From positions 1 through 58,071 of IMG/VR virus record IMGVR_UViG_3300034062_006549: a DNA stretch of 58,071 bases; one strand, 5' to 3'. Below the pieces are notes generated by a model. It searched no databases, had not been told where the DNA came from, and saw nothing but the letters and a program-made list of their open reading frames with translations. Each line of letters opens with the position of its first letter. Positions within the stretch are counted from its first letter, which is position 1. Both the position numbers and the translations under genes were made by a program. Shown one piece after another: positions 20,680 through 49,115 of this stretch. Source of the stretch: a virus (taxonomy: Duplodnaviria > Caudoviricetes).

Positions 20680-20895
20680 ATGCCAACAACAATAACAATA
20701 AATGGAGTTTCAGGTGCAACACCTTTTGACATTTATCTTTGTGATGACCCTCTTACCACTTGTGTCTATGTTGATACAATTACTGGGGGTACTTATTCTT
20801 TTGATGTTCCATTAATTATGGATGGTCAACTTTCTTATAATCTTAAAGTAATTGATGACAATAATTGTGAAATAATCTCAAATCTAGTAGTTTAA
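20680..20895 (+). CDS. small single-module (SprB-repeat-like) structural protein
   Basis: SGATPFDIYLCD...CVYV...LKVIDDNNCE; paralog of 23011..23310. Confidence 0.65.
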   Translation: MPTTITINGVSGATPFDIYLCDDPLTTCVYVDTITGGTYSFDVPLIMDGQLSYNLKVIDDNNCEIISNLVV

Positions 20896-20898
20896 TAA

Positions 20899-22962
20899 AT
20901 GAGTTGTTTTTGTCCATCGGGTTATACCCCAACCATAGATTCAGATGATTGTATATATACAATAACTGCCGCAACAAGTGGTGGTACATATTTTTATACT
21001 GGTGTCGCTGCGGTTGATGTAAGTGTTTATTGTAAGTTTGGTGTTTTTTTCTATGAAGATATTACAAACTTATCATTTCCAATAACCACTTCAGGCACAA
21101 CCGGAACAACAACAACTGAAAATGGTACTTCATTATTTAGCACCCAATTTATGGTTGATAATAGTGGAAGAATTTTAAATATTCAAGCCGGTGGTAATGG
21201 TGCTCCATATGGACCAACATCAATACAAAATAGTTTATGGGGAACAGGAATTGGTACTAGTACTGGTAGATTAAATAACGCAGGTATTTGGGCAACATCA
21301 GTCGTTCCTGGTGACCCAATAGATGAATGGTTAGGATTTTCATATTGTTTAGATATAGTTTCTGGTGGAACTTATTTTATTGGTGTCGCTTCAGATAATC
21401 TTTTCAAATTAACATTAAACAATCAATTATTAGTTCAAAGTAATACAACAAATTTTGATTATAGTGCTCCTTTAGGTATGCCTGGTACATATATTGGGTT
21501 TAATAGTTGGAGTGTTTTCCCAATTACTCTAAGTTCAGGTCTTAACATAATCCAAATGGAATCCTTGAATTTAACAGGTAATCCTTTATCAAATTATGCG
21601 GCCTTTGCTGCGGAAATATATTCAGGTTCAGTTTCTACATTGAGTGGTTATACAAGTTATTCTCAATTAAGTGCTGATACTATTTTTACAACATTAGATT
21701 TTATTGGCCAAGATATTCCGTTATCATCAAGTGGCGCAACAACAAATACGGGTTATACTTGTCCTGATGGGTATTCATTATATACTTGTAGTGGAACACC
21801 ATATTGTATTTTTATAGATAAGGTAGGATTAATTAGTTTTTGTATAAGTGACACTGGATTAGGTTATGATGATAACTTTACACTTTCAGGGACTTATAAT
21901 TCAGAACCATATTGGAGTGGTAGTTCAACTAGTAGAGTTATCTATTTAACTTCAGGTGGGATGTGGTGTTTATCTGATACTTTGGGTGGAACTTGTCTTT
22001 TGGAAGGTGCTTACCCTTGTACTTCAACTTGTCCTGATTTGTGTGATACATATTTTAGTGAGGGAGTTTGTCCGACACCAACACCAACACCTACAATTAA
22101 TTGTTCAGTATTAGATTTTACCGCAATATTTGATTGCGAAGTAACACCAACACCATCTATTACCCCAACATCAACCACTACTCCAACACCTACCCCAACA
22201 CCAACACCAAGTGATCCTTGTGGTGGTAGAGCGGTAGATGTGACAATAACTGGATATACACCAACTCCAACACCTACAATTTCAGTGACACCAACAATGA
22301 CACCTGAAATAACAAGACCTTGTAATGTTAATGGAAATGTTACATTTAATATTATTGACGCTTACATAGAATGTCCAAGTAGTAAACAATTCCAAGATTG
22401 TGAGACTGGTAAAATGTATTATACTACTAAAAAGTTAATAGTTCCTTCAGGTGATGTTTTAGCCCCATTTATGGTTTTCAAAGCTGATGTAAATGGTGTA
22501 TCAAAATGTATTTCGTTTGTTGGTATCAATATGTTAATAATTGGTGTTGATGATATTGTTTTAGTTGATGGTGTTTTAGGATACTCAAACTTAGGTGAAT
22601 GTTCTTTATGTACACCAGATATTCCTCCAACACCAACTCCAACAATGACACCTACAATAAGTCTAACACCTTCGGTAACACCAACTATTTCAGCACCTAT
22701 GGGTTATTATGTTTATAGAAATTGTAATACTTTAGTTTATTTAATTCAAACATCTCCAGGTCCTTCTATAGTACCAGGTCAAACATTCTCAAATCCTTCA
22801 TCAGAATCATTTGGTGATTGTTGGTCGTTTGAATTCTATTCGGCAACTTATCCAACGTTATCACCTAAGGCAAGTTATACTTACTTATCAGGAAATAATT
22901 TTACAAATTTAGGTACAACAATTTATTCAGATTGTGTCTCTTGTAATGCAAGTTCAGGATAA
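20899..22962 (+). CDS. Cys-rich virion fibre/adhesin with PA14-like domain and (PT)n linkers
   Basis: GTYFIGVASDNLFKLTLN...PITLSSGLNIIQME; four Pro/Thr tracts; many Cys. Confidence 0.7.
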   Translation: MSCFCPSGYTPTIDSDDCIYTITAATSGGTYFYTGVAAVDVSVYCKFGVFFYEDITNLSFPITTSGTTGTTTTENGTSLFSTQFMVDNSGRILNIQAGGNGAPYGPTSIQNSLWGTGIGTSTGRLNNAGIWATSVVPGDPIDEWLGFSYCLDIVSGGTYFIGVASDNLFKLTLNNQLLVQSNTTNFDYSAPLGMPGTYIGFNSWSVFPITLSSGLNIIQMESLNLTGNPLSNYAAFAAEIYSGSVSTLSGYTSYSQLSADTIFTTLDFIGQDIPLSSSGATTNTGYTCPDGYSLYTCSGTPYCIFIDKVGLISFCISDTGLGYDDNFTLSGTYNSEPYWSGSSTSRVIYLTSGGMWCLSDTLGGTCLLEGAYPCTSTCPDLCDTYFSEGVCPTPTPTPTINCSVLDFTAIFDCEVTPTPSITPTSTTTPTPTPTPTPSDPCGGRAVDVTITGYTPTPTPTISVTPTMTPEITRPCNVNGNVTFNIIDAYIECPSSKQFQDCETGKMYYTTKKLIVPSGDVLAPFMVFKADVNGVSKCISFVGINMLIIGVDDIVLVDGVLGYSNLGECSLCTPDIPPTPTPTMTPTISLTPSVTPTISAPMGYYVYRNCNTLVYLIQTSPGPSIVPGQTFSNPSSESFGDCWSFEFYSATYPTLSPKASYTYLSGNNFTNLGTTIYSDCVSCNASSG

Positions 22963-23010
22963 TAAAAGATATGTAAATTTCTTTTGTTGTATTTATAGAA
23001 AAATTAAAGG

Positions 23011-23310
23011 ATGCGTACTTTAGAATTTACAAGTGTCACTGGGTTGAACCAACCTTATACTATATACGTTTGTAATGTATTTGGTGGGGATTGTGTATTA
23101 GTCGCATATTTTTCAACGAATGTACCTCCAAACAATTTATTTGTCTTACCACCAGTTTTTGATACAGCCCCAGCAATTGGGGTTAAAGTAATTACAAGTG
23201 ATGGGTGTGAAAGATTTAAGATTTTATATTGTAGTGAAGATATTAAAGAATTTATGGATTTAGATGATTTCTTTTTTATGGATGGAATTGGTTATTTCTT
23301 TATGTCTTAA
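23011..23310 (+). CDS. small single-module structural protein
   Basis: PYTIYVCN...CVLV...VKVITSDGCE; TATTTAT at 22990-22996. Confidence 0.65.
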   Translation: MRTLEFTSVTGLNQPYTIYVCNVFGGDCVLVAYFSTNVPPNNLFVLPPVFDTAPAIGVKVITSDGCERFKILYCSEDIKEFMDLDDFFFMDGIGYFFMS

Positions 23311-23331
23311 GTATTTATAAATAAAAATAGA

Positions 23332-23979
23332 ATGGCATTTCTTACTGATAGAACTTTAGCAACAGGTGTTACCCCAAATGATTTAATTCATATTGTTATT
23401 ACAGGTGACACTTCTCAAAATCCAGCTGGTTCATCATATAAAGCGACAATGGGTCAAGTAATTGACTTGATAAATCCAACTACTTTGACTGGAGGTACTT
23501 ATGATTCAGTCACAGGTTCAATTACTTTTTATGATGACACTGGTGGGAGTTTTATTGTTACTGGTTTAGTCACAGGATTTTCGGATACTTTTGTAACAGC
23601 TTTTACTTATAATAACGCGAATACATTTACAATAACTGAAAATGATGGGTCAACTTTTAGTGCTACTATAGATTCAATTACTGGTATTACATATTATGAA
23701 GCGACAACAGGTATTACTACTTCAGCAACAACTTTAGTATCGGGTTATAGTTATAATGGAATTAATTATTTGGGGAATGTGGACTTAACTTTATTTTCAC
23801 CAAACTCCTTAGATGGTTTAAAAATTATAGTCAAAGATGAAGGTGGAAATGCTGGTTCAAACAGAATACGAATAGCTCCATCAAGTGGAACAATAGATGG
23901 AAACTCTTACATTGATATGAACATAAACTATATGTCACTTACATTTGTGGCAAGAAATAATAATTGGTGGTTAATATAA
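23332..23979 (+). CDS. tail-fibre-like structural protein
   Basis: NDLIHIV...SSYKAT N-terminus; IIVKDEGGNAG...I..GTIDG...SLTF...WWLI fibre-type C-terminus; TATTTAT at 23312-23318. Confidence 0.65.
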   Translation: MAFLTDRTLATGVTPNDLIHIVITGDTSQNPAGSSYKATMGQVIDLINPTTLTGGTYDSVTGSITFYDDTGGSFIVTGLVTGFSDTFVTAFTYNNANTFTITENDGSTFSATIDSITGITYYEATTGITTSATTLVSGYSYNGINYLGNVDLTLFSPNSLDGLKIIVKDEGGNAGSNRIRIAPSSGTIDGNSYIDMNINYMSLTFVARNNNWWLI

Positions 23980-23980
23980 T

Positions 23981-25195
23981 ATGGCATACATTTTTAATAA
24001 TTCAGTAAAGTATTCGGATGGTCCTAACTTAGACGCTTTTGGTCGTTTAAGAACTGCCGCAGTACAAAATCTTTTGGATATCAAACATACATTTGATAAA
24101 AACCCACTTCAAATTAGTGAGGTTACGGCTGGTACTGCTACATCAATATTTGACCAACAATACGCAAGAGTGAGAATGTCAACCTCAGCTAACAATGACT
24201 TGGTTATTCGTAAGACTAAAACACATCCAATTTATCAACCAGGTAAAAGTCAATTATTTGAAGGTAGTTTTAGTAATTTTCAAATAGAACCTAATGTAAT
24301 TAAAAGAGTTGGGTGTTTTCAATCAACAACGGGTTCACCTTATAATTCGGTATTTGATGGTTACTTTTTGGAAAGTAATGGTGTTACTAGTGCAATAACA
24401 TTTAATATATTCTTAAGTGGTTCTTGTACTTTTAGTGCTGACTCAACAACTTGGAACTCAACCGAATTCGACCCAAATAATTTTGATTGGGCAGAAACAA
24501 ATCTAATGACAGTAGATTATCAATGGTTAGGTGTAGGTAGAGTGAGATTTGGTATGGTTTTATCAGGTCAAACATTCTATTTTTTAGATTATACCGCAGC
24601 AAACAATATACCAACTGTTTATATGTCCTCACCGAATCAACCAATTAGATACGAAATTAGACAAGTTGGTGTTGGTTCAGGTTATTTTGATATGATTTGT
24701 TCTCAAACTTCAACAGAAGGTGCCCTAAATGGTTTATATTCAACAGTTTCAATTCCTTACACCGCAACAACCACGATGGCTACCTCAGGTACAAAATATC
24801 CATATATTGGATATAGATTAAAAGAAAATTACATTGGTGTAACATCTCAGTTTGACACAATCAGTATCTTAAACACTTCAAACGATAATTACTTGTTGAC
24901 AATGGAATTCAATCCAACATTATCTTCAACACCAACTTGGACTGATATTCCAAATTCACCTTTTCAATATTCTTTAAGTGATGGAACTCCAACAATAACA
25001 ACACCAGGACACGTAATGACATCTCTAATTGGTGAGGCTGGTACATCTGCTTTAACAACCACCAAATTAGATGACAATCAAATAAGAGTTGGTTCAAATG
25101 TTAATGGTACTAGAGATGAAATGTGGTTATGTATAACACCATTAAGTAATAGTGCCACATTCATTGGTGCTGCTGATGTTTTATATTATTTATAA
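23981..25195 (+). CDS. beta-sandwich (lectin-like) structural protein
   Basis: DAFGRLRT...YQPGKSQ...DYQWLGVGRVRFG...PIRYEI; beta-strand-rich, S/T/G-rich. Confidence 0.6.
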   Translation: MAYIFNNSVKYSDGPNLDAFGRLRTAAVQNLLDIKHTFDKNPLQISEVTAGTATSIFDQQYARVRMSTSANNDLVIRKTKTHPIYQPGKSQLFEGSFSNFQIEPNVIKRVGCFQSTTGSPYNSVFDGYFLESNGVTSAITFNIFLSGSCTFSADSTTWNSTEFDPNNFDWAETNLMTVDYQWLGVGRVRFGMVLSGQTFYFLDYTAANNIPTVYMSSPNQPIRYEIRQVGVGSGYFDMICSQTSTEGALNGLYSTVSIPYTATTTMATSGTKYPYIGYRLKENYIGVTSQFDTISILNTSNDNYLLTMEFNPTLSSTPTWTDIPNSPFQYSLSDGTPTITTPGHVMTSLIGEAGTSALTTTKLDDNQIRVGSNVNGTRDEMWLCITPLSNSATFIGAADVLYYL

Positions 25196-25224
25196 AGTCA
25201 AATAATCCTCTATATTTTTTTAAT

Positions 25225-26202
25225 ATGGAGGATTTAATTTTTGTAACCGCACAACCTGACGTACCTTACTTCCATTGGCAAGTTAGAGTTTATGTCCACA
25301 ACTTTATTGAGATGGGGATTAACCCAAACCAAATACACGTAATATTTGGGATTATGAATCAACAAACAGACCCAAGTTATGATTCATTAAAATTAAAAGA
25401 ATTGGGGATTAATATCCATTATTATAAAGATGAAAGAAAATTCAAACATTATATACCTAGTATAAAACCTTTTTTAATCTACAAGTGGTTGGAAGAATAT
25501 CCTTCATATGGTAAACTAATATTCTTACATGATGCGGACATTGTTTTTAGAAAACTTCCTAACTTTGAAAGTTTAATAAAAGATGATATTAATTATTTAT
25601 CTGACACCATTGGTTATATTGGTTATAACTACATAATTGATTGTTGCAATCGTTATGAGAAAAGCCATCCAAATTGTTCAAAACAAAAACTTTTGGATAA
25701 TATGTGTGATGTTATTGGAATTGATAAAGAAGTTGTTAAATCAAATCAAAATAATTCTGGTGGTGGACAATATTTGATTAAAAATTCTGATTTCAAACTT
25801 TGGGAGAAAATATACATAAATTCTACCGAATTGTACGATAAGATATGGGATTATCACACCAAATATCCAATAAAACCAGGTGAAATTCAATCTTGGACTG
25901 CCGAAATGTGGTCATTACTTTGGAATTTATGGTATTATGGTTTTGAAACAAAAATTTCAGATGAATTAGATTTTTCTTGGGCTACTGATAGTATTGATGT
26001 TTATAATAATAAAAACATTCTCCATATGGCTGGTGTTACTGAGAATCTAAAAACAAAAAAATTCTTTAAGGGGGATTTTATTAATGTGAATCCATTAAAC
26101 AAACTAAAGGAAAATATTGGTTTTTTTGATTATATCGATAAAAATAGTTCAACGACCGAATATATAAAAATAATGAAAACTATTGTTGAAAATGGTTTCT
26201 AA
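25225..26202 (+). CDS. GT-A glycosyltransferase resembling peptidyl-serine galactosyltransferase/Hyp arabinosyltransferase (GT96/GT95)
   Basis: YFHWQ, SIKPFLIYKWL, IFLHDADIVF (DxD), GGQYLI, WTAEMW, ILH, in the same order as SERGT1 YFDWQ, INKP..V.HWL, ILDADM, WISEMY (recalled). Confidence 0.75.
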   Translation: MEDLIFVTAQPDVPYFHWQVRVYVHNFIEMGINPNQIHVIFGIMNQQTDPSYDSLKLKELGINIHYYKDERKFKHYIPSIKPFLIYKWLEEYPSYGKLIFLHDADIVFRKLPNFESLIKDDINYLSDTIGYIGYNYIIDCCNRYEKSHPNCSKQKLLDNMCDVIGIDKEVVKSNQNNSGGGQYLIKNSDFKLWEKIYINSTELYDKIWDYHTKYPIKPGEIQSWTAEMWSLLWNLWYYGFETKISDELDFSWATDSIDVYNNKNILHMAGVTENLKTKKFFKGDFINVNPLNKLKENIGFFDYIDKNSSTTEYIKIMKTIVENGF

Positions 26203-26228: not shown

Positions 26229-28244
26229 ATGAGTTGTAATTGTATTCTACCATTTATGGTAAATGCTGCCGGTAATGGTTGTGAACAAATAACTATAACC
26301 TCAGCAACTATACCACCAATTTTAAGTACTGCAGTATTTCCAACCACAACAAGTGGTAGGTGGGGTACTATGGGTATTGTAGTATATGAAGATATTACCA
26401 ATTTACCAAAACCAATAATATTATCATCAGATATAAGTAATGGTGGTGTATCAACTAGATCAAACCAATCACTAAAAAAATGTACTTTTTTCAGACATAG
26501 TGGTAACCCTTTACAAGGATTCCAAACTAACATTTTAAGTTTACAAGTTGGTGGTCCTGGTTATGGATTTGCTCAAGATTTAATAAATCCTCCAACTTTT
26601 TATGGTCCTGCTATTGAACGGGGAGTTATTGATACTACAGCTGCTGGTTGTAATACGAGTTGTTATCCATCGTATGCACGTACTTGGGGAAATCAATATG
26701 GATGGAATTCAAGTGGTGCAATATGTGGTCCGACATGTAGAGCAGGAAGATTGGGTAAAGCAGGTATATGGGGATCGGGTTTAGGTTTAAACAATTGGGT
26801 TGGTTTTGTTAGTTGTATTACTTTAGCTTCTACTCAAACAATATACATTGGTATGGCCGCTGATGATGATTTTAGATTTTATTTAAATAGTCAATTATTG
26901 GTTGAGGGTGTTTCACCATCATCTATTGCAGGTTTAACCGCCTATGGATTGACCCAAGTTATAGGTGTTTCAACTTCCTTAAATTGGAACGTATTTCCAA
27001 TTACTCTACAAGCGGGTACTTACACATTTTCACTTGAAGCAAGAAATCTTGCTTCTGATGGTATATTAGGTGCCGAAATATATACTAATGTTAATGATGT
27101 TCAGGATTTCAGAACTATGACTGTTCAGGCAGGACCGAATTCTATTTCAAATTATTTAGCTTTTTCAACATTAAATAGAATTGGCCTACCATTTCAATCA
27201 GGCCAAATAACTTGTCCTAATGGATTCTTCCTAACTAATTGTGGTGGTGAAATAAGATGTCAAAGAATTACGACAACAGCTTGTGCTGCTCCACCACCAT
27301 CACCTTCACCAACGCCAACAATAACACCAACACCTACTAAGACACCAACAAGAACACCAACTCCAACACCCACTAAAACTATAACACCAACGCCTACTCA
27401 AACACCTGGTGCTTCGCCAACGCCTACACCATCCATAACACCAACGATAACACCAACAATTACACCAACGATTACACCAACGTCATCTGCAACTCCAACT
27501 CCAACACCGACACCAGTGTATGATTATTTGCAATTTGGTTATGTTCAGGCAAATGAATGTGATGTTATTACAATTTACCCTATGGGTGTAAGTTGTATTA
27601 CAACACCTGTTACAGGAAAACCAGGTAATTCAAATGGTATTATTGAGTTATCAATAACTGGGGGTACTTTACCATATACCATAACTATGACCGATTCAAA
27701 TGGTGTATCATCATTAGTTGGTCAAGTCGTTTATAATTTACCTGCAGGTACGTATAGTTTTGTTATTGTTGATTATTTCAGTGATTTTACTGCAACAACA
27801 ACTTGCACAATTGAAGCTCCAACTCTTCCACCAACTCCAACACCTACACCATCAAATGTACCTGTAACTTGTTTCTGTATGAAATTTAATATATGGACTT
27901 GTTCTAAGACAGCTTCGGATTCTGTTGTTCTTACAAGAACATTCTGTCAGACTATTGATGTATTTGGAGAACCTGCTTGGTTATCAAATACTGGAACTGA
28001 ATTAATATATTTTGATAGTACTGATAATAGATATGAAATGTCGGGTTCAACATCAAGTATTATAAATAGTACACCATTTTTAAGTACGGTAGGTATTCCT
28101 TGTAATAGTATATTTAATACTATTGCTCAACCAAATTCACCAACATTATTTGACGAAATAACCACACAAAGTAATTGGTCTTTAATAAATAATGTTGCAG
28201 GAAATAAATCTCTGAATTGTAAAATAAACTCAGGTAGTTGTTAA
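26229..28244 (+). CDS. Cys-rich virion fibre/adhesin with PA14-like domain, long (PT)n stalk and SprB-like repeat
   Basis: Paralog of 20899..22962 (YEDITNL, GRL..AGIW, W.GF..C, WxVFPITL, AEIY); [14 protein letters not shown]; TATTTAT at 26206-26212. Confidence 0.7.
27290..27520 (+). repeat. coding (ACN-CCN)n low-complexity repeat: Pro/Thr stalk
   Basis: Encodes [26 protein letters not shown]...; similar tracts near 22070-22310, 22620-22700 and 29570-29765. Confidence 0.9.
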
Positions 28245-28248: not shown

Positions 28249-28974
28249 ATGCCTATATTCAATACTATAACTCTTAATCAAACAAATTGTTCTTGTGATG
28301 CAGGAATAACAATTAACACAAGTGGTGGAAATCCACCTTACTCATATTCAATTGATGGTGGTATATCCTTTAGAAATTCCCCAATATTTACAAATATGTG
28401 TTCGGGAAATTACGTTGTAATTGTAAAAGATGTGAGTGGAGAAACATCAAATAATTTTATAACAATCAATCCACCACAAGATAAGATTGCATATAATGTT
28501 TATTTATCAACTTCAGAAAAAATAACACAAGAATCAAATAATTTTGTTTCAAAACAATACATAACAACATTAAATTTCTTTCCAACATTACCTGATAATG
28601 TTTCAGTAACTTTTGATTTAATACATTCAAATATTCAAAAGTCAGGACCTAATGATTACTCATTCTCATCAACAACAACATCAGTTTTGGATATCAATAT
28701 GGTAACAACCTCAAATTCATATTCAGGTTCAACAACTGGTTTGACAAATAATTTGAATAGTGGTTGTCAGAGTGAAAATGTATATATAACAACATTTATG
28801 GAGGGTTGGAATTCATTAACGATGACGAATAGTGATTCATTTGTATTATCAACAACAACAAATCTATATAAAAACGAAACTATACTATGTTACATTGGTA
28901 CAAGTGATGAATATTTTTCAATTTCGAATTTAAGTATAAGTGGTTGTACTTGTTGTACAATTGTGACATCATAA
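28249..28974 (+). CDS. SprB-repeat structural protein
   Basis: C..AGITINTSGGNPPYSYSIDGG...FTNMCSGNYVVIVKD. Confidence 0.7.
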   Translation: MPIFNTITLNQTNCSCDAGITINTSGGNPPYSYSIDGGISFRNSPIFTNMCSGNYVVIVKDVSGETSNNFITINPPQDKIAYNVYLSTSEKITQESNNFVSKQYITTLNFFPTLPDNVSVTFDLIHSNIQKSGPNDYSFSSTTTSVLDINMVTTSNSYSGSTTGLTNNLNSGCQSENVYITTFMEGWNSLTMTNSDSFVLSTTTNLYKNETILCYIGTSDEYFSISNLSISGCTCCTIVTS

Positions 28975-29000
28975 AAAAACAAGACTATATATTTATAGGC

Positions 29001-39200: not shown

Positions 39201-39279
39201 CTAATTGTAAACCAACTAGATTATCTGAGAAAGTACCAAAACCTGATGCTGTTTGTGGTGGACAAGTATATTTAGCCAT
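36205..39279 (-). CDS. baseplate wedge/tail protein (P2 gpI-like core)
   Basis: LLKNLALTLGW...YRNLILN..YLFKSKGTRKSIEILLKLIG. Confidence 0.7.
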   Translation of the reverse strand: MAKYTCPPQTASGFGTFSDNLVGLQLVNGGGLTQGNFEFTTSANEKVNRNFTTGTFSNPINLDSLNVSDVNQSRLIIEKNFKVYPNYDLSEITNFVQYGSMVKRMSAAVTKIISYFPAAIESNKIGINYTSDVTAFNISYSEINDETTFSLDVTRIRNPFNIDFTTNATRNLQLREIEVSQLRNLTTGFTSYSLYINGEGYGITGIVPTSSLSSGTLILYTEGNPFSGQSFTYDNLIIRPNDYEVNKVFNENLDQVENFLLNRNVKPKYTANFSVPTENDDGTYSIGNVLLTWPLYGSWNLDIVSQGFKNYLVTLNGVSENFDSYQSNLVSRFLTTGAFKEFDTIGQKAEKVLQLYGRSFDEVKKYINALSFMTSVNYNVGNDIPSQLLKNLALTLGWSTNISPITNDDFLASVFGQKNQGKPNYTGTAIVQTPDELNYQYYRNLILNSAYLFKSKGTRKSIEILLKLIGAPDALVEFNEYVYLADQRINLSEFDTQYAQISGGTYVEQIPILDTAEVRTIMNITYTGFTTIANIKDVNVTLDDFPMDKFGYPQAPIDNESYYFQIGSGWFEQTPQHRAPEEVDPTLSVFFGNNPNFQTSLIPYTYGQVYLNRFRDFPFMTLGYRLTPQIDNNKSWFAEEVNLRSNLDGNFNARYFTESDKLVLNVKNVDLFLNPAQGLVYDVWSMSRQLNYPIPNEGLNYIRPTYCNPNPNSIYPDRGGVDWTIINPQPKRKTFFEFAQTFWKNMINVRNRQYANNGKTGGYPTLESIYWKYLQSESIANLPNNNFTYDNMIQYVNGMGDYWVRLVEQMIPASTIWNTGVKMENSIFHRQKFSWRRQRGCQLIKGNEGGGIAPGGGETFLGRVPPLCRPCQSYTNIFNYDCPIQSITCPKYPWLENPEILSLEGVLGNLLSTYLTSNGYELNDCILDGLVTEWYINIQVSGNTLVNYPFFNGYTYAFNPYNAPNVSQYDTALINALDSLIYFGYDYYLTDDNNIIVFNQICQENDSGLDFKISIGINFEIFCS

Positions 39280-40214: not shown

Positions 40215-41372
40215 TTATGTATTTGTAACTTCAAAAAAACCATATCCGTATTTAGTTAAATCACCCACGTTATCAACTTCACCCAATCTAATGATTCTTT
40301 CCAATGCCGAATTTTTCCCCCTTTCAACAAAGACCTCAGATTGGACTTCAGGTTCATCAACAACGTTAATTAAATATTCTTCTTTAATTAAAGGTTCGCA
40401 AACTACATCAATTGGTGTAACTCCCGAAACAATGAAAAGTGTTGTACCATCTTCATAATCATAGTAATCAATTCCATTTATTGTATATCCAGTTGCTAAA
40501 CCATCAGGTGTTGGTCCTTTATATATTCCAACAACTCCCGAACTACCAGTAACCACATATCCCAATTTAAACTTATTAACTCCGAACTGAGCCAAATCAT
40601 TCAAAGATGATTTAGTATAACCTGTAATTATTATATCACTTGTCAAATATGGATTAATTCCACTTTGGTAAATTTCACACGTTGAGTCTCCACTAAAAAT
40701 AAAGTCGTATGAAATTGGTGTGTCAGCCCAACTACCACCAAACGATTGAAAGAATACTTCACCATTCGGATTATCTATTGTAACACCAGTGAATGGTACA
40801 TATACTTTCTTTTGAATTATATTATACCCCCAAGGACTCATACCTGACATCGTAATTGTGTATTCCCCACTTGAAACATATGTATGAGTATATGGTGTTG
40901 ATGTGTATGGTGATACACCAGTTACGTTACCATCACCCCAACTTATTTGGTAATTTGAAAAACTAAGATATTTTTTAAATTCATTTTCTGAGGTGTTATA
41001 TAAAAATATTGTTTTAGCGGGTAGGACTGGATTTCCACTAAAAACAAAATTATTTAAAACATCCTTTTGTGAAATTAAACCATCAAATACTGAATAATAT
41101 CCAACATCAATTGCTGATTGTGTCAACATTATTGGTACACTCAAATCAGTCAATAAAGAACTACCATTTGTTCCACCTGACAAAATTTGTGTCATTGAGG
41201 AATAAGTGTAGGTTAAACCTGTAATCTTAGTTGTTGTGGTTGTTGTTGTTACATCACAACAAGGATCCGCACTGAATGGTTGTGAAAAAAAACCTCTAGT
41301 GTAATCAACTAAAAACTTTTTATTGTTAATTACCTCAGGTGATATTCTTATATGAAAAGTTCTATCTTGCAT
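40215..41372 (-). CDS. structural protein with PKD-like domain
   Basis: ISWGDG...THTYVSSGEYTIT. Confidence 0.65.
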   Translation of the reverse strand: MQDRTFHIRISPEVINNKKFLVDYTRGFFSQPFSADPCCDVTTTTTTTKITGLTYTYSSMTQILSGGTNGSSLLTDLSVPIMLTQSAIDVGYYSVFDGLISQKDVLNNFVFSGNPVLPAKTIFLYNTSENEFKKYLSFSNYQISWGDGNVTGVSPYTSTPYTHTYVSSGEYTITMSGMSPWGYNIIQKKVYVPFTGVTIDNPNGEVFFQSFGGSWADTPISYDFIFSGDSTCEIYQSGINPYLTSDIIITGYTKSSLNDLAQFGVNKFKLGYVVTGSSGVVGIYKGPTPDGLATGYTINGIDYYDYEDGTTLFIVSGVTPIDVVCEPLIKEEYLINVVDEPEVQSEVFVERGKNSALERIIRLGEVDNVGDLTKYGYGFFEVTNT

Positions 41373-42211
41373 TATTGAATCAATATTGGGTTTACATATT
41401 CATACCATTTTATTGGATTTGTTATAGTCCCTATTCTTTGATTGTTCAGACCATCAAATATTTTGAAGGTATAATTTGAAAAATCTAAAATTACCTTATT
41501 ATAAAAATAAGTTGACCCCGAAAAATTATATCTGTTTGGTGCTGGAAATATTGATTGTGGTCTATTCATCATTTTTACAAAAACACCTATTTTTGCATCA
41601 AAAAACTTTGCTGACATATAGAATGTGTCCAAGTCAATATATGACCTATCAGTTAACCAATAGATGAAGAATCCCTCTTTATCACCAATAAAATCCAACT
41701 TGTATTTTGGTTTTCTAATTAGAACTTGTCTTAATGATTGTGAAATTAATGCGGGTTCAAATTCACCTTGTTGTACAGGAATTATTATTGTAAAATATAT
41801 TGTTTGATTTTTATCATCATTAGAACTATAAAAATCTAATTTGAAGAAAGAATTCGTGAAAGGTTTACGATAAAAGTAAACTTCAGATGTTTCAAATCCT
41901 TCAGGTAAATATGAATTAACCCAATCAATACTATTCAAAGTACTTGCTGTTACATTCACTGGTTGACCACTATAAAAGTAAAATTCATAGTTTAATGATG
42001 TTCTTGTATCCGTTGGAGAATATTCACTATGTGAATATCTTGCAACTTCAAAGTCAACACCAATACCCAAAATTTCAGTCAAAACATCGGACTCCCATTT
42101 TTCAATATCGTCAGTTCTACCAACAAAATCCCAATTTATTTCAATTGGGATATTAATTGTTTTGTCTGAAACAGGTAATGTAAAATAAAAATTATTATTC
42201 ACAATTATCAA
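41372..42211 (-). CDS. putative baseplate/structural protein
   Basis: 279 aa, aromatic- and beta-rich, translationally coupled. Confidence 0.6.
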   Translation of the reverse strand: MIIVNNNFYFTLPVSDKTINIPIEINWDFVGRTDDIEKWESDVLTEILGIGVDFEVARYSHSEYSPTDTRTSLNYEFYFYSGQPVNVTASTLNSIDWVNSYLPEGFETSEVYFYRKPFTNSFFKLDFYSSNDDKNQTIYFTIIIPVQQGEFEPALISQSLRQVLIRKPKYKLDFIGDKEGFFIYWLTDRSYIDLDTFYMSAKFFDAKIGVFVKMMNRPQSIFPAPNRYNFSGSTYFYNKVILDFSNYTFKIFDGLNNQRIGTITNPIKWYEYVNPILIQ

Positions 42212-43970
42212 TTATTGGTTCTGCGATTATGGTCTGTATATTATAATTAGTACCCTCTGGTATTATTCTAAAAAAATAATTTTCGTGTGGATAATGAACA
42301 TTATTTAAAAATGGATAATCAACCCCCAAACCACTTGTGTCCACAAACCCATAAGGATATAAATCTCTCCAAATAAAAGAATTTTTAGTTGTTGAGAAAT
42401 AAGAATAACTTGGTATGTCATCCACAAATTTTGGGTCACCTTCTTCAATATAATCAGAAAATACTCTTGTCGTTAATTTCCAATGGGGTTTATAGTAATA
42501 TCCAAAAGGATTTGTATTTACCCCACCAATGTTGAAGTTATTTGGGTTATACTTGAATTTATGATGTATTTCAGAAATTACTCTTTCTTTTTGTTCGTAA
42601 TCATTCCATTCACAAAAATCACCATCAATTATATCACCCTCTTTTGGAGAATTAACATAATAAAAATTATAAGTTGTTCCATTTTGAGTTCTAGTATATG
42701 AACCAAGTGTGTTAAGTGGTGATGGACAATTTGATAAGTTTTGTGATGAAGACCACCAAATATTTGGTTGACCTTGATATAAAGGTAGATTGAAATCCCA
42801 TCCTTGTTTTAATCCAAAACCAGGTATTTGACTTGAACAAGTCCATCCGAAATATCCTTTCCATATTATGGAAAAAAATAATTCACTGATTGGTCTTTTT
42901 TGATTATCCAATAATGGTGATATTCTGAATTTTTTATCAAATGATAAATTATATGATGGATTACCTTCCAAAATAGATACACGAGCAATACCATTTGGGG
43001 TTAATCCACTACTTTCATACTTTCGTTTTTGTCCAAAAATACCTTGTTCAAAACCTGATTTTGTCAAAGTAGCATCTTCAGGGTTCGTTAATATTTTATT
43101 TCTCCTTATATAATATTTTGATTTGGTATCTGCCGAATTTGAATCTAAAATAACTCTTTTGAATGTACCAAATTGACCTTGATTGAAAGTGCTACCAGTG
43201 TAACCAACATCTATAAAATTAAAGATATATTCGTCACTACCATAGTTTTCATCACCTAAAGAGTAAACCTGAAATAGATTTGTACCATTGTATGTGAAAT
43301 TAGAACTTAACTCAACAAACTCACCAGCACTCAATCCGTGTCTCATTCCACATCTAAAACTTACCAAAGGTCTTCCATTAAACTTACTTCTTTTTGCGAT
43401 TACAAATGGAATACCAGTAGAAGCCGACCACAATATTGTTTGTCCTGAGATATCAATGTATTGTAAATTTTTATCTACATTATCATAAGCATATGACAAA
43501 AAGAAATTCCAATTGTATGATGTCGCACTTTTAGCGGTAAATAAAATATGTTCATTAGGTGGTTGAGTATAACCACTAACATTATAATCATTTCTAATAA
43601 AATCGAACTCGTGAAATTGAGGTAAACCAGTCCAAGAAATACTATTTGGATTGTTATTTGGACTACATTCTAATATCTTTGCTTCACGAGCATTCAAATA
43701 ATACATATTATTCTCAAATGGAATATAATTTGTTGCACCACTATATCCGTTTTGAAAAAGAATTGTAAATTTTGCGGTTGGTCTAAACTCGTCAGAACGT
43801 TGTCTTTCATCATCAAAAACTTGTTCTAATCCAACATTAAAACTTCTATCGTATTCTGTTAATTGTTTCTCATTTTGTACTAATGGAACTTGGAAAAACA
43901 AATTAGTATCTGAAGCGGATTTGAACCTCAACGAACCTAAAACTACTCTTATGTCATTTTGATTTCCCAT
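42195..43970 (-). CDS. putative baseplate/structural protein
   Basis: 591 aa; HGLSAGEFVEL beta motif; module context. Confidence 0.6.
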   Translation of the reverse strand: MGNQNDIRVVLGSLRFKSASDTNLFFQVPLVQNEKQLTEYDRSFNVGLEQVFDDERQRSDEFRPTAKFTILFQNGYSGATNYIPFENNMYYLNAREAKILECSPNNNPNSISWTGLPQFHEFDFIRNDYNVSGYTQPPNEHILFTAKSATSYNWNFFLSYAYDNVDKNLQYIDISGQTILWSASTGIPFVIAKRSKFNGRPLVSFRCGMRHGLSAGEFVELSSNFTYNGTNLFQVYSLGDENYGSDEYIFNFIDVGYTGSTFNQGQFGTFKRVILDSNSADTKSKYYIRRNKILTNPEDATLTKSGFEQGIFGQKRKYESSGLTPNGIARVSILEGNPSYNLSFDKKFRISPLLDNQKRPISELFFSIIWKGYFGWTCSSQIPGFGLKQGWDFNLPLYQGQPNIWWSSSQNLSNCPSPLNTLGSYTRTQNGTTYNFYYVNSPKEGDIIDGDFCEWNDYEQKERVISEIHHKFKYNPNNFNIGGVNTNPFGYYYKPHWKLTTRVFSDYIEEGDPKFVDDIPSYSYFSTTKNSFIWRDLYPYGFVDTSGLGVDYPFLNNVHYPHENYFFRIIPEGTNYNIQTIIAEPIIDNCE

Positions 43971-43973: not shown

Positions 43974-46900
43974 TTATATTGCATTTGTATTTACCCATTT
44001 AGTGACAAATCTGTCCCAAGCACTTTTCCCTTTTTTAAGTCCAAAGTAAAAATAAAATGGTGCACCAACAGTAATAGCATTTTGTTTATCAGTATTTTGT
44101 TCTCTTGAACCAGGTAATGGATTATATTCAAAAGCTGATGATGATGTAGCACTAACTGAGTATATATATCCACGTCTATCTCTAAAATATGGACTACTAT
44201 TAGTTCTAAAATATCTTGAATTTATACTAACTCTATCGAGTGATTGATATTTGAAGTCAAAGAATTGATTTGAGGTAATTCCTTGTGTCCACCATTCATT
44301 TTTCTGAGAGCCAAAAATAGAGTCATAAATACCACCTTGTTGATTTTGTTTAATTTCCCATTGATAAACTGGTACTCTCTGTGAAAAGATTGGGAAATCA
44401 TTAAATGCACAATTAGATTGTGTTATAGTTGCTAAAGGGTTAATTATATCTCTCTTAGGTGAAATATAATCTCTAATTTGTGTGTCAGAAGAGAAGAAAA
44501 TACCAAATATTGCATCATTAGCATCACCACCATTAAAATAAATTGGGTCTTGAGAGTTTGGTATTTCCACGTATGTATCAGCATCAAACTCATCTACACC
44601 AAGTTCTGAATTAATTGATATCATTTGAGCATAGTCAGCATCAACAGTTACTCTTGGTCTACTGAAATATTCAAATATATTTGCACCATCACCACCTAAA
44701 ATTAAATTTATTAAAGAAGTATTTGCTAATCTTGTGATTATAAAAATATTTAATATGTCTGAAACATTTTTGAATGTAGATGATTGTAAATCATTAACAA
44801 CATAACCATCATACTCATCAGAATATACAATTTCTTGTATGTAATTACTTCTAGGTCCCAAATCCATAATTGTTGTTGGGAATAAAAGATTTCTATCGTT
44901 TTTAAACTTAAGTGAAGTTATTGGTCTTCCAACAAAATATTGTGACGTACCAGAATAGTATGGGCTACTTCGATAATAAAAATTATTTGTTGGTGTATCA
45001 AAATATATTGTTTCAGTACAGAATTCACTAAATGGTTGATTATTTTCATCAAAGAATCTGTTGTTTTTAAAACTAAAAGCATACAATGTACCATTAATCC
45101 AGTTGTTTGTAAAATGATGTGAAAACACATTTCTACAAGCACCAAATATTATATTTGTTCTTGATATCCATTCACCTAACAATGCCACATCTTTAGGTAT
45201 TGATAAGAATAACGTTGTTATTAATATATAACATCCGTTATCAAATACTGTTTGACCTAAATATTCTTTACAACTTCCATCTTGTACTTCAAACTCGCCA
45301 CCACCTGATGGTAATCTATTGAATTTGTAACAATCTAATGGTACAGAATCTTTACAAGAATTAATACTTTGAACTAATTGATTTGTAAAATTTTGTGGTG
45401 TATCATTATCTGATGCACCAGTACTATAAGATGCTATATTTATACCTTGATCTTCCATTTGGAAGATTCCTTCATCAGGAATCGTGTAAATACCTAAATA
45501 TAGGTTCTGTTGTAAAACAAAACTTCTTTTACAATTATCTTGTAAAACATCAGATGTTGGTAGTCTATCTGACCTCATTACTAATTTTCTCTGTGGTGCA
45601 CCTGTACCAAATGTAATAGTTGTACCACTAGGATATTTAAACGAGTAATAAGCCGAATTATAATTATATTGATAACCATCGTTTGGTCTTATTATACCAT
45701 CTCTAATTGATGGTAGAGATAAACTCAAACCCATAAATGAACCACCCTCCACAATTTCACATCTGTTAGAGGTTGTAGGATTTGCAAAATAACCTCTATT
45801 CATTGATGGTACACTACCATTAGCTCTACGATAATAGTTAGCACCAAAACTTTGATCAGGATTTGGACAAGGGAACAAATTATTTGGTGGGGTAGCTAAT
45901 GGATTACACGTTGAAAATTCGTATCCAAATTGATTTGTAATACTAATTCTTCTACCATATGTTGAATCAGTACTTGATTGATTAGTCATTGATAATGTAC
46001 AAAAACATCTTTCATCAATAGGTGTTGTAGGGGTAACTGAAGATATTGTTGGTTGTATTGTATTATTATCTAAATTCGAATAATACTGAATCAAGTTTGA
46101 TGTATATCCACTAAAATCAGTTGGTAAGTAATTAAATGTTGGATAAAATAATGGTGTATTAGAATAGGTACTATTGGTAGTTGGGGTAATACCTGAATGT
46201 TGAACATTTTTAAACCTCCCTTGTATAGGAATATTTAATTTATAATCACCATTTACAACACAACCTGATTGATTTTCATTATTATAACCAAATAATCGAC
46301 CTAATTCATATCTTACTGGTATTCTACTTGAATAAGGGTCAACACCACGAACCATAATAACCAATATATTGTCCTCATAGTTATCTAGAACAACCATTGG
46401 GTTTTTATAAAATTCTTGATATCTTCCCCAAGTTGTGTTCTCATCAGTTTCAATCCTTAATATCCTCATATTATTATTCAATATTCTTGAATATAATGAG
46501 TTTGGTAATTGATTACTACTTTTTGAGAAATATTCACTAATTGTTAGTCCAGTTATCACTTGAAAATATTCAATATCTGTTGGGAATTTGTGATAATTAG
46601 TATCTCCTGATTCAGGTAATGGAATGGAATAATTTATAGGTGGAAAAAAGTTACCTGTACCATCTAATTTTGCATAGCTTATTGATATTGATGTTGTATT
46701 AAGACCATTACCTGAAATTGCATTATTTCCATATATGTTTGTTGCTCCACTAAAACAATTTTTATCATTAGATGAAAGTGGATTAACAAATGTTATCATC
46801 TGGCCTGCAACTATATTTTGTGCGGATTCAGGTGTGCACATCATTACAACAACATTATCAAAATGACTTAATGAACTACTTGGTTGAAACGAAACTTTTA

Positions 46901-49115
46901 TTCTATTAACTCCCCCACCAGGATTATTAGGCGATGAATTGAAATATTTAGCTTTTGTATTAAAAAGATTTATTCGTTCAGGTAATGTGATATTTGATGT
47001 TAAAAATATTACATCTTCAATACCATTAGTACTTGGATTATTTTCAGTACCCTCAACAACTATTGGTGTTCTTGTATTACAATTAGATATTTTATTATTT
47101 GATGGATATACTAATGGAGCTCCCGCTAATATCGAAGTCATTTGTAATTCATCAGTATTACTTGATCCTGCAAAATATTGACCAGGACTTAATGGTGTTA
47201 AATTCATTCCTGATGGATTAGCTGATGGTAACGGAATCGGACTATTTTCAGTAGGATTTTGAGTTTCAGGTGTGTAATTTTCACTAACAGATTTACCATC
47301 CTCACAATCACAAAATTCACATTGGTCATATAACATTATAGGTAAATTAATACCTTTTATTTCAAGTTTAAGTAATTCAGTCCAAACCCATGTGATAAAA
47401 GCAGATAAAAGTAAAAATAAACCACCATTAATAAAAAATTGTACTGAACCTCCAGGGTTTGGAAATGGAGGTAATAATACAGAAACAGCTATTACAAATT
47501 GTTGTATAGCTAAAGCGAAAATATAAAGAGCAAACCCAAAAAGAAATATTTTTAATAAAAATAAAATGAATAATAATACGTGTAAAACATAAATTAGAGC
47601 ATATAAAATTGGTCTAAATATAAACATCACAAATGTGAATAATAAAAATATAATATCCCACTTAAATGAAGAATCATTAGTAGGAAATTTGTTGTTGTCA
47701 CTTTCACAACTTGGGTCTAAAATATTTTTAACTGAAATAAATCTATTAGGTAACGTACCTTTACCATATTGGTCAATCAATTGAGATACAGTATAAACTT
47801 TATTGAAAGCCATATTATAGAATGTATCCTCACAATCTATAGCAGCTTGTGGATCAGCATAATCATCCCAATCTAAACTGAACGCATATGATTTGGCTCT
47901 TTGTGATTGGGATATTATATTATTACCATTAGCATTCCATCCGTACTCTCTAACATTTGGTACTAAGAAGTATGCTCGTTTGATATTTTCAGATAAATTT
48001 GGTGATTGATTCCACTTAATTTTGAATCTATATTTACCCTTTGTTGGGATACCAATTGATGGGTCATCAGATATTATCCTTTCACCAAATTCATTTGTAG
48101 TTACATAATCTAAATTCATTGGTACATCAATCAACCAAGTCCCATTGTCATCAATAACTTGACCACCTTGTTCCAAGGCAAATACTTCTAGGATTGGTTT
48201 TCCTGTATTATCTAAACTTGTTGTTTGTCTAATTGCTAATATCTCACCAGGACCAGCAATCAAACTACAAAGTTCACCTTGTTTGAATTTAGGTTTACAA
48301 TTTTGTTTTAATGATAGGTCATCAACATTTGAAAATATTGACCCCATAAATATGGCCGTTGGTTGGATGGTAATATTGGCCTCACCAGTCAAATCAAAGT
48401 CAGTTCTTGTTATACCAATATTACATATCTCAGGTTGACCCCATAAAGGTTCAACATTAATGATTCTATTAATTGTAACGATTTGTGGTAATTCATTTAA
48501 ATTTGTTGATGATTTAAATTTAGTACCAGCAACTTGAGCATCAGTTGCCCTACCCATCCTAATAAGATCTTGTGGTGACAATGAAAATTCACCAATATCA
48601 GATAGGTCAATATCAATATGTAATGTCTGAGTCCCTCTTGGAACTCCAAAAATCATAAAGTCGCCACTCTCATTTGTTACTGCAGTATATCTAAAATATT
48701 TGTCAAAGACTTCAATGTAACTTGGGTTAGTTAAAATATCTTCTTTTTCAAAGAATGTACCAGTTGGGGAGTGGTTACTATAAGATTTTGTATAAGGTAA
48801 TAAGTTATATCTATAACCATCTTCATTTGTATCTGAAACAGATTTATAAGGGTATAAATCAGTTATGATTGGGTTATTTTCATCTTCATTTGACAATGGT
48901 ATGAAAATTGAAACTTTACAATTAGGTAAACCAAATCCTTGGTTAGCGGTAACTCTACCTATGACAACACCATAGTCGGAGCATTGTCTTGTATAAATTT
49001 GACTTTGTGTTATTTTAAGTGATAATACTTCTAAGAACTCAAAATCTTGGTCTAATAGTACTTTAATTGACTTATCTACACCTACTTGGGTTCTTAATCT
49101 ATAAGAATTTGACAT
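43974..49115 (-). CDS. very large baseplate-associated protein with internal membrane-like segment
   Basis: 1713 aa; N-terminal carboxypeptidase-regulatory-like GRV...V.IF...TNESGDFMIFGVPRG; about 95-aa hydrophobic block; TATTTAT at 49133-49139. Confidence 0.65.
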   Translation of the reverse strand: MSNSYRLRTQVGVDKSIKVLLDQDFEFLEVLSLKITQSQIYTRQCSDYGVVIGRVTANQGFGLPNCKVSIFIPLSNEDENNPIITDLYPYKSVSDTNEDGYRYNLLPYTKSYSNHSPTGTFFEKEDILTNPSYIEVFDKYFRYTAVTNESGDFMIFGVPRGTQTLHIDIDLSDIGEFSLSPQDLIRMGRATDAQVAGTKFKSSTNLNELPQIVTINRIINVEPLWGQPEICNIGITRTDFDLTGEANITIQPTAIFMGSIFSNVDDLSLKQNCKPKFKQGELCSLIAGPGEILAIRQTTSLDNTGKPILEVFALEQGGQVIDDNGTWLIDVPMNLDYVTTNEFGERIISDDPSIGIPTKGKYRFKIKWNQSPNLSENIKRAYFLVPNVREYGWNANGNNIISQSQRAKSYAFSLDWDDYADPQAAIDCEDTFYNMAFNKVYTVSQLIDQYGKGTLPNRFISVKNILDPSCESDNNKFPTNDSSFKWDIIFLLFTFVMFIFRPILYALIYVLHVLLFILFLLKIFLFGFALYIFALAIQQFVIAVSVLLPPFPNPGGSVQFFINGGLFLLLSAFITWVWTELLKLEIKGINLPIMLYDQCEFCDCEDGKSVSENYTPETQNPTENSPIPLPSANPSGMNLTPLSPGQYFAGSSNTDELQMTSILAGAPLVYPSNNKISNCNTRTPIVVEGTENNPSTNGIEDVIFLTSNITLPERINLFNTKAKYFNSSPNNPGGGVNRIKVSFQPSSSLSHFDNVVVMMCTPESAQNIVAGQMITFVNPLSSNDKNCFSGATNIYGNNAISGNGLNTTSISISYAKLDGTGNFFPPINYSIPLPESGDTNYHKFPTDIEYFQVITGLTISEYFSKSSNQLPNSLYSRILNNNMRILRIETDENTTWGRYQEFYKNPMVVLDNYEDNILVIMVRGVDPYSSRIPVRYELGRLFGYNNENQSGCVVNGDYKLNIPIQGRFKNVQHSGITPTTNSTYSNTPLFYPTFNYLPTDFSGYTSNLIQYYSNLDNNTIQPTISSVTPTTPIDERCFCTLSMTNQSSTDSTYGRRISITNQFGYEFSTCNPLATPPNNLFPCPNPDQSFGANYYRRANGSVPSMNRGYFANPTTSNRCEIVEGGSFMGLSLSLPSIRDGIIRPNDGYQYNYNSAYYSFKYPSGTTITFGTGAPQRKLVMRSDRLPTSDVLQDNCKRSFVLQQNLYLGIYTIPDEGIFQMEDQGINIASYSTGASDNDTPQNFTNQLVQSINSCKDSVPLDCYKFNRLPSGGGEFEVQDGSCKEYLGQTVFDNGCYILITTLFLSIPKDVALLGEWISRTNIIFGACRNVFSHHFTNNWINGTLYAFSFKNNRFFDENNQPFSEFCTETIYFDTPTNNFYYRSSPYYSGTSQYFVGRPITSLKFKNDRNLLFPTTIMDLGPRSNYIQEIVYSDEYDGYVVNDLQSSTFKNVSDILNIFIITRLANTSLINLILGGDGANIFEYFSRPRVTVDADYAQMISINSELGVDEFDADTYVEIPNSQDPIYFNGGDANDAIFGIFFSSDTQIRDYISPKRDIINPLATITQSNCAFNDFPIFSQRVPVYQWEIKQNQQGGIYDSIFGSQKNEWWTQGITSNQFFDFKYQSLDRVSINSRYFRTNSSPYFRDRRGYIYSVSATSSSAFEYNPLPGSREQNTDKQNAITVGAPFYFYFGLKKGKSAWDRFVTKWVNTNAI

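Follow-up and report, generated by a model that had tools for sequence, protein, structure and literature searches.

A sequence-specific pentapeptide recurs at conserved positions in unrelated outer virion proteins of an uncultured phage lineage, independently of a neighbouring glycosyltransferase

Results

A tetrapeptide is enriched in non-homologous outer virion proteins

Outer virion proteins encoded by the virus contig IMGVR_UViG_3300034062_006549 share a short motif, [ST]-[GA]-x-[ST], whose enrichment is real, specific for the order of its residues and convergent in proteins that are not homologous. The stretch analysed, called the window below, is the whole assembly of 58,071 bases (~30% G+C, rated 20% complete), and the motif lies in a structural gene block at positions 20680-49115. 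A preliminary description had noticed the tetrapeptide there and had proposed a recognition site, most plausibly for glycosylation by a transferase encoded in the same block. Every tetrapeptide that it listed is present.

From a set of 58 non-nested open reading frames (ORFs), a virion block of 16 ORFs within 20680-49115 (9212 amino acids, aa) was compared with a contrast set of the other 42 (9735 aa), in which the RuvC-like ORF at 32289-32888 was placed. The virion block holds 106 tetrapeptides against 43.4-45.8 expected (z 9.1-10.1) from shuffles of whole proteins or of local stretches of 30, 15 or 10 residues. Shuffles that preserve dipeptides gave 54.3 (z 8.1), with a maximum of 74 among 300 shuffles. 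Ten rearranged orders of the same residue classes reached ratios of only 1.0-1.43. The pairwise parts of the motif are weak ([ST]G 1.23, G.[ST] 1.18, [ST]..[ST] 0.97) and the tetrapeptide signal is therefore a three-way effect. The pattern N-x-S/T was not enriched in shuffle tests of the window ORFs.

It had been allowed that part of the signal might come from Ser/Thr/Gly-rich composition or from the SprB consensus. The virion-block ORFs are rich in Ser and Thr (17-30% S+T), and the core of the SprB repeat (PF13573), a hydrophobic residue and [ST]-G-G-T followed by P-Y, resembles the motif. Four or five sites, in the 1093-aa and 671-aa proteins, lie inside such GG[ST]xPY segments. Nevertheless, the enrichment survives the 10-residue local and the dipeptide-preserving shuffles, rearranged patterns are not enriched, and removal of the three SprB-bearing proteins leaves 79 tetrapeptides against 29.4 (z 10.3). 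SprB-rich adhesins of the one Bacteroidota genome used as a control show ratios of only 1.06-1.11. In that genome, which has 69 SprB matches, 24 large S/T-rich ORFs (31,140 aa) hold 308 tetrapeptides against 278.4 and 42 of the pentapeptides defined below against 39.6, and 82 other ORFs hold 53 tetrapeptides against 57.1. The 12-base sequences are distinct at 101 of the 106 sites and codon use is near background, which places the cause at the level of the protein and not of a DNA repeat. Composition rich in S/T/G, local low complexity, the SprB repeats and a repeated DNA element are thus all hardly conceivable as the source of the signal. At position 0, Thr is encoded by ACT in 62% of cases (background 34%) and Ser by AGT in 42% (background 31%), a codon-pair preference for T preceding a GGN or GCN codon.

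The motif had been said to recur in otherwise unrelated proteins, which holds for most of the carriers. BLASTP among the window proteins revealed only the homology of the 687-aa and 671-aa ORFs, the shared SprB repeats and one short PKD-like match, of 46 residues, which links the 1093-aa and 385-aa proteins. When all pairings of eight family alignments were compared by hhalign, two segments reached 63-65% probability and the remainder stayed below 1%. A hidden shared domain was accordingly rejected as the cause at the sensitivity of hhalign. Among 12 outer baseplate, fibre and Hoc proteins of T4, 32 tetrapeptides were found against 36.3 expected, and the motif as a generic property of T4-type fibres was rejected as well. 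The tail fibre of a marine T4-like cyanophage shows a weak tendency (36 tetrapeptides against 22.7, 8 pentapeptides against 3.7).

In the contrast set, 6 sites were counted where 11-12 were expected (z -1.5 to -2.1). The rarity of the motif in replication enzymes and in the inner wedge, earlier judged by eye, is therefore mostly a matter of composition. ORFs of the block, among them the transferase, and the inner wedge protein from the contrast set are listed below, with site counts tested against 1000 shuffles of each whole protein.

20680-20895, + strand: 71-aa ORF; 2 sites vs 0.18 expected; weak Ig-like (Kre9_KNH) match
20899-22962, + strand: 687-aa ORF; 12 sites vs 6.0, z 2.6; T/P-rich linker at 22144-22230
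23332-23979, + strand: 215-aa ORF; 10 sites vs 2.2, z 5.6, the highest density; weak tail-fibre PHROG match
23981-25195, + strand: 404-aa virion structural protein (phrog_1645), directly upstream of the transferase; 7 sites vs 2.5, z 3.1
25225-26202, + strand: 325-aa predicted GT-A-fold glycosyltransferase (phrog_4417); 0 sites
26229-28244, + strand: 671-aa ORF, directly downstream of the transferase; 3 sites vs 5.7, not enriched; sub-threshold SprB match
28249-28974, + strand: 241-aa ORF; 4 sites; sub-threshold SprB match
28944-32282, + strand: 1112-aa ORF; 12 sites vs 4.8, z 3.5
32924-36205, - strand: 1093-aa protein with SprB repeats (69.7 bits) and DUF285 (186.8 bits); 20 sites vs 9.2, z 3.9
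36205-39279, - strand: 1024-aa ORF; 5 sites vs 2.3, z 1.8 (weak)
40215-41372, - strand: 385-aa outer baseplate-module ORF; 10 sites vs 1.8, z 6.4
41372-42211, - strand: 279-aa ORF; 2 sites
42195-43970, - strand: 591-aa ORF; 9 sites vs 1.3, z 6.9
43974-49115, - strand: 1713-aa ORF; 10 sites vs 4.6, z 2.5 (weak)
49191-51029, - strand: gp6-like inner wedge protein (Baseplate_J), contrast set; 1 site vs 1.8

The 385-, 591-, 215-, 1093-, 1112- and 404-aa ORFs are strongly enriched and the 1024- and 1713-aa ORFs weakly; the 671-, 302- (0 vs 0.8) and 99-aa ORFs and the transferase show no enrichment. Only the 1093-aa ORF passes the PF13573 gathering score of 28; the 671-aa and 241-aa ORFs score 18.8 and 23.1 bits, in that order, and the other motif-rich ORFs have no SprB match.

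The enriched sequence is a pentapeptide with strict residue preferences

When one position was varied at a time, the motif proved to be sharper and more specific than first described. At position 0 only Ser (2.9x) and Thr (2.0x) are enriched, and at +1 only Gly (2.6x) and Ala (1.95x), with Asn at 1.1x and Asp at 0.95x. Position +3 favours Thr (3.5x) over Ser (1.0x) and Asn (0.93x). The residue before the motif also matters: at -1, V/I/L give 5.2x and F/Y/W 3.75x, compared to 1.27 for other residues. The resulting pentapeptide, [VILFYW]-[ST]-[GA]-x-T, occurs 56 times in the virion block against 11.3 expected from dipeptide-preserving shuffles (z 13.9). Spacings of 19-26 residues between sites are about twofold over-represented (16 vs 8.6 expected, z 2.7). 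In the 385-aa protein, five sites at residues 227-316 are spaced by 23, 25, 19 and 22 residues, and each follows two or three hydrophobic residues.

Motif sites are conserved in position among homologues

IMG/VR holds 547 stretches related to the window at ~50-60% identity, some of them on contigs of 190-322 kb. From 126 loci, ORFs of 80 aa or more were assigned to the window proteins at a coverage of at least 60%, and identical sequences were dropped. Tetrapeptide counts per homologue, which are non-independent observations, and the number of these motifs that fall in alignment columns occupied by a motif in at least 50% of sequences were as follows.

385-aa family: 11.7 motifs per homologue vs 2.4 expected, 83 of 83 homologues above expectation; conserved columns hold 9.1 of 11.7 per sequence (expected 2.4)
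591-aa family: 4.2 vs 1.4; conserved columns hold 2.4 of 4.3 (expected 1.3)
1093-aa family: 18.9 vs 7.8; conserved columns hold 9.0 of 19.0 (expected 7.9)
1024-aa family: 4.7 vs 2.7; conserved columns hold 3.1 of 4.7 (expected 2.7)
1713-aa family: 7.7 vs 5.7 (ratio 1.35)
gp6-like wedge family: 0.1 vs 1.5
reductase large subunit family: 0.0 vs 1.6

In the four aligned families, the excess over chance approximately equals the number of conserved sites, and columns less than 20% occupied contain 0.5-4.8 sites, at or below chance. Three of the conserved sites are these.

40614-40628, - strand: ITGYT site of the 385-aa ORF; motif in 100% of 83 homologues (I/V, T/S, G100, Y/F, T95)
41169-41183, - strand: LSGGT site of the 385-aa ORF; motif in 95% of homologues
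43518-43532, - strand: KSATS site of the 591-aa ORF; motif in 97% of 86 homologues (S96, A98, T82/S16, then Y100)

At conserved sites the Gly and the Thr at +3 are the most conserved residues, and x and the flanks are often conserved too. In the 385-aa family, these include Y100 at residue 296, D100 at 229, Y/F at 252 and G100 at several sites. Position 0, in contrast, exchanges Ser and Thr freely (S44/T39, S46/T39, T68/S31). A modification sequon would be expected to leave x and the flanks free and to turn over from site to site; here the excess is restricted to conserved columns.

Five large relatives were compared: G001 (322 kb, rated 100% complete), G002 (89%), G003 (71%), G004 and G005. 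Over the whole proteome of G001, the motif is concentrated in large S/T-rich ORFs, with mild enrichment in proteins that resemble sheath (11 vs 6.2) and capsid (5 vs 2.9). G001 ORFs with less than 16% S+T hold 74 sites against 82.9 (z -1.0), compared to 44 against 46.8 in a bacterial control, and avoidance of the motif by non-virion proteins was rejected on this count. Three very large G001 ORFs of 2463, 1856 and 688 aa (70077-77468, 204225-209795 and 246242-248308; loci L141, L148 and L150) contain 152, 95 and 42 tetrapeptides against 83, 52 and 18 and few pentapeptides. They seem to be S/T/G-rich repetitive proteins of another kind.

The neighbouring ORF encodes a predicted GT-A-fold glycosyltransferase

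The transferase on which the glycosylation proposal rested is borne out by structure prediction. ORF 25225-26202 lies within the structural gene block on the same strand as its neighbours, from which it is separated by 30 and 27 bases. It matches phrog_4417 (unknown function) at 2.7e-71 and no Pfam family at E <= 0.01 or NCBIfam family at E <= 0.1. A model built from 15 sequences (predicted local distance difference test score, pLDDT, 89.6; predicted template modelling score, pTM, 0.89) gave 255 Foldseek matches in the PDB at E <= 0.001, and the 48 best were all glycosyltransferases or a GT8-family protein. These include the UGGT catalytic domain, XXYLT1, glycogenin, LgtC, LARGE1 and ABO transferases (E 5e-7 to 5e-5, TM 0.36-0.48). 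The fold match to GT8/GT24-type GT-A enzymes such as UGGT, glycogenin, XXYLT1 and LgtC has a probability of 1.0, although identity to solved GT-A chains is only 7-14%, at the low TM scores given above, and the ORF falls outside the Pfam and NCBIfam families. An ESM Atlas model (pTM 0.92) resembles clusters of HPAT-type peptidyl O-glycosyltransferases at TM 0.72-0.73; it also resembles a galactosyltransferase-like cluster from Bacteroidota, with a TM by query of 0.90. The DxD element follows a hydrophobic strand and is located as follows.

25522-25542, + strand: FLHDADI element with the DxD of the transferase; H102, D103 and D105 invariant in 15 of 15 aligned sequences

On these models we conclude that the ORF encodes a GT-A-fold glycosyltransferase with a putative DxD metal/nucleotide-sugar site.

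Motif enrichment does not follow the neighbouring transferase

A transferase homologue is absent from G001, G002 and G003 and present in G004 and G005. Enrichment of the tetrapeptide in the outer baseplate module is equal in the two groups, with ratios of 2.19, 2.15 and 2.53 without the gene and 2.25 and 2.99 with it. The pentapeptide behaves in the same way (7.5, 5.3 and 7.7 without; 6.1 and 7.7 with). G001 is syntenic with the window except that it lacks the transferase gene and the preceding 404-aa gene. Conversely, Lactococcus phage 1706 and Chryseobacterium phage MA9V-3 both carry a transferase homologue, and the tetrapeptide is not enriched in either of the two. The enrichment is thus independent of the neighbouring transferase, and the co-variation expected if the enzyme read the motif does not appear across the relatives.

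What favours this gene product as the enzyme is its place inside the structural block and its nearest solved folds, among which UGGT, glycogenin and XXYLT1 act on proteins, together with the Atlas likeness to HPAT-type enzymes. Against this stand the three relatives that stay enriched without the gene, one of them rated 100% complete, the two phages that have a homologue and no enrichment, and the shortage of sites in the ORF directly downstream of the gene (3 vs 5.7). In addition, the gene stands beside ORFs with runs of Thr in all eight phages opened, as described below. It is therefore very improbable that the pentapeptide is the sequon of this transferase. Of the earlier idea of a recognition site, the order-specific, convergent enrichment in non-homologous virion proteins stands, and the link to the adjacent enzyme does not.

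The 404-aa (phrog_1645) and transferase genes stand side by side both in the window and in G004, and the otherwise syntenic, complete G001 has neither; the pair behaves like a two-gene cassette. In cyanophages, homologues of the 404-aa protein are found without a phrog_4417 transferase.

The pentapeptide may be a structural element of beta-rich proteins

We give about an even chance to the reading that the pentapeptide serves unrelated, beta-rich outer virion proteins of this lineage as a common, conserved element of a strand or turn. It is carried by proteins of the outer baseplate module and of fibre type; sheath and capsid have it more weakly. We infer this structural role from the fixed positions of the sites, the conserved x, the small residue at +1, the Thr at +3, the hydrophobic residue at -1 and the spacing of ~22 residues in the 385-aa protein. 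The independence from the transferase and the lack of avoidance by non-virion proteins point the same way. In such an element, the hydrophobic -1 residue would end or sit in a beta-strand and be followed by the hydroxyl residue. The residue at +1 would have to be small (Gly or Ala), the turn-formers Asn and Asp not being accepted, and the beta-branched Thr at +3 would resume the strand. The pattern would suit tight packing in stacked or repeated beta units. In the sole moderately confident part of the 385-aa model (residues 110-195, pLDDT 56-83), the site at 176-179 is placed at a predicted strand end.

Several observations weigh against a purely structural role. The 385-aa models are otherwise too poor to place sites (AlphaFold2 with 30 sequences, pLDDT 38; Atlas, pTM 0.27), and a profile search of PDB sequences with this protein returned no match at E <= 1. 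A generic beta preference would be expected to appear elsewhere, yet neither the T4 proteins (32 vs 36.3) nor the Bacteroidota surface ORFs (pentapeptide, 42 vs 39.6) display it. No context is shared by the flanks of the sites outside -1 to +4, and profile-profile comparison found no module common to the families. The same pentapeptide would thus have arisen by convergence in unrelated folds, an unusual outcome if the cause is purely structural. The free interchange of Ser and Thr at position 0 also fits an acceptor hydroxyl.

This last point, together with the preference for Thr at +3, is what would be expected if the motif were a sequon for O-glycosylation or another Ser/Thr modification by a different phage transferase or a host enzyme. 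The enrichment depends on residue order, is shared by convergence among unrelated virion proteins and is specific to the lineage, and G001 and G004 carry other transferase genes, GT2-like and GT1/4-like, that might supply the activity. One study describes four core orthologous groups of putative glycosyltransferases in large aquatic phages of Flavobacteriia (PMC12619734), and there is a precedent in mycobacteriophages, which modify capsid and tail-tube proteins with their own enzymes (PMC12363180, PMC12619734). However, the motif does not co-vary with the only transferase of the window, sites are fixed with x and flanks conserved, and sporadic sites occur at chance, without turnover. A hydrophobic residue at -1 and the need for a small one at +1 suggest a packed strand over an exposed loop, the motif is not avoided elsewhere in the proteome, and the precedent glycans are C-terminal and not internal (PMC12619734). 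We consider modification by another enzyme unlikely.

The known sequon of the presumed host phylum offers no match. General O-glycosylation in Bacteroidota uses D-(S/T)-(A/I/L/V/M/T) and acts outside the cytoplasm. It is likewise a short Ser/Thr pattern, but virions assemble inside the cytoplasm, and the sequon is not enriched either in the virion block (33 vs 34) or elsewhere in the window (26 vs 22).

A further likeness is to the ice-binding protein of Flavobacterium frigoris, FfIBP, in which T-A/G-X-T/N is described as a regular motif on one face of the beta-helix (PMC5334608). The order of hydroxyl, small, any residue and Thr is the same, again on beta structure and in a protein from a family of the host phylum. 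The motif might accordingly form a Thr-rich flat surface that binds host polysaccharide or ordered water, with selection on surface chemistry and not on folding alone. It is restricted to proteins of the outer baseplate module and of fibre type, which face the host, and the inner wedge has almost none. It belongs to one lineage of aquatic phages; the marine cyanophage fibre shows a weak trace of it (36 vs 22.7). By comparison with the ice-binding face (PMC5334608), Asn is not enriched at the last position (0.93x) and a hydrophobic residue precedes the motif. The carriers here are phage virion proteins, only one of which has regular spacing, and Pfam matches of 20 ORFs from 20680 to 53987 include neither DUF3494 nor another ice-binding family. 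A binding surface of this kind, suggested by likeness of sequence, is improbable.

If the pentapeptide is a structural element, it would provide a compact signature by which proteins of the outer baseplate module and of fibre type could be recognised in a large and uncultured group of aquatic phages. Across the 547 related stretches such proteins are almost devoid of family annotation.

The phrog_4417 transferase is found beside poly-threonine runs

The most useful new lead to emerge is that phrog_4417 transferases are paired with virion proteins that carry poly-Thr tracts. Homologues of the transferase occur in 77 phage records, mostly with Firmicutes hosts and one with a Chryseobacterium host. 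The gene directly follows a major tail or tail-tube gene in phiFL1B and phiCTP1. The gene before it is annotated 'major structural protein' in phage 1706 and 'major tail protein' in iLp84. All eight transferase-bearing phages opened (loci L129-L135 and L182) have an ORF with a run of at least five Thr within ~2 kb of the gene. These runs comprise 5-12 Thr and mostly lie at the C-terminus of a capsid or tail protein. ORFs with Thr runs number 16 of 116 in the transferase loci. The corresponding counts are 0 of 76 for T4, 1 of 118 for the Bacteroidota genome and 0 of 36 for the cyanophage.

The window has two such runs, which are internal, in contrast to the C-terminal runs in capsid and tail proteins of the Firmicutes phages.

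31725-31745, + strand: run of 7 Thr in the 1112-aa ORF; three runs in the G004 orthologue, none in the G001 orthologue
41229-41249, - strand: run of 7 Thr close to the N-terminus of the 385-aa ORF; at this position, T5-T6 in three transferase-positive relatives and no run in G001

Within the lineage, Thr runs are present in 11 of 266 ORFs from transferase-positive loci and in 0 of 39 from transferase-negative genomes, a sample too small for significance. In whole genomes they are present in 4 of 202 ORFs of G004 and 3 of 361 of G001, and two of the four in G004 are among the first ORFs downstream of the transferase. These small numbers are suggestive of a within-lineage link between Thr runs and the transferase.

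It is more likely that the phrog_4417 transferase O-glycosylates Thr runs in virion proteins than that it acts on the pentapeptide. Enzyme and poly-Thr tracts together are probably a virion O-glycosylation system outside the mycobacteriophages. The mycobacteriophages Che8, Corndog and Myrna are reported to glycosylate capsid and tail-tube proteins with their own enzymes, and the glycans sit at the C-termini of the subunits (PMC12363180, PMC12619734). The window is similar to what these sources describe in that its transferase gene lies inside the structural gene block. The pentapeptide differs from these C-terminal glycan sites in being internal, conserved in position and independent of the transferase, and the poly-Thr tails beside phrog_4417 homologues resemble the mycobacteriophage system more closely than the pentapeptide does. 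A literature search that covered neither supplements nor subscription papers found no description of the phrog_4417-poly-Thr pairing, and a prior description is possible.

The pairing spans phages of Enterococcus, Lactococcus, Lactobacillus, Clostridium, Staphylococcus and Chryseobacterium. It suggests that virion glycosylation, shown only for mycobacteriophages in the literature examined, is far more widespread. It also provides a directly testable enzyme-substrate pair, which may matter more than the pentapeptide itself. A combined scheme, in which another transferase modifies pentapeptide strands of baseplate and fibres and phrog_4417 modifies the poly-Thr tracts, seems rather unlikely to us; if true, the virion would bear two classes of programmed glycosylation sites.

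Origin of the window and other features

Besides gp25-like and gp6-like baseplate wedge proteins and replication genes, the window encodes ribonucleotide reductase, DnaJ and a sigma factor. Capsid and tube genes are absent from the 58,071-base contig. Its closest named relatives are Tenacibaculum and Cellulophaga phages, with matches confined to the reductase genes, and a search of cultured phages with the 591-aa and 385-aa proteins returned neither a match nor a family. The phage that carries the window, known solely from a metagenomic contig, is large and has presumed Flavobacteria-type hosts. The recently named moraphages are large freshwater phages with predicted Flavobacteriia hosts, DnaJ/DnaK homologues and the four core glycosyltransferase groups mentioned above (PMC12619734). 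The window contig may be a moraphage or a near neighbour of the moraphages. Its DnaJ is full, with DnaJ, DnaJ_C and CXXCXGXG domains. A tally of domains across the early and replication region as a whole (1-20635), not tied to individual ORFs, includes a histone H1-like Hc1 domain protein, a sigma-70-type factor, a 4HBT thioesterase and an Amidase_2 domain protein.

The 687-aa and 671-aa ORFs are homologous over their N-terminal ~300 residues (28% identity, E 2e-20) and differ in their C-terminal parts. They look like a pair of alternative fibre or receptor-binding proteins, with the motif enriched in the 687-aa member only. The 1093-aa protein, a phage protein of fibre type, combines SprB repeats with a Y_Y_Y-like Ig domain and with repeats of DUF285 (leucine-rich, BspA-like) in an architecture that resembles host adhesins. 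Its closest cellular relative found, at 34% identity, is encoded in a Bacteroidota metagenome-assembled genome (L155).

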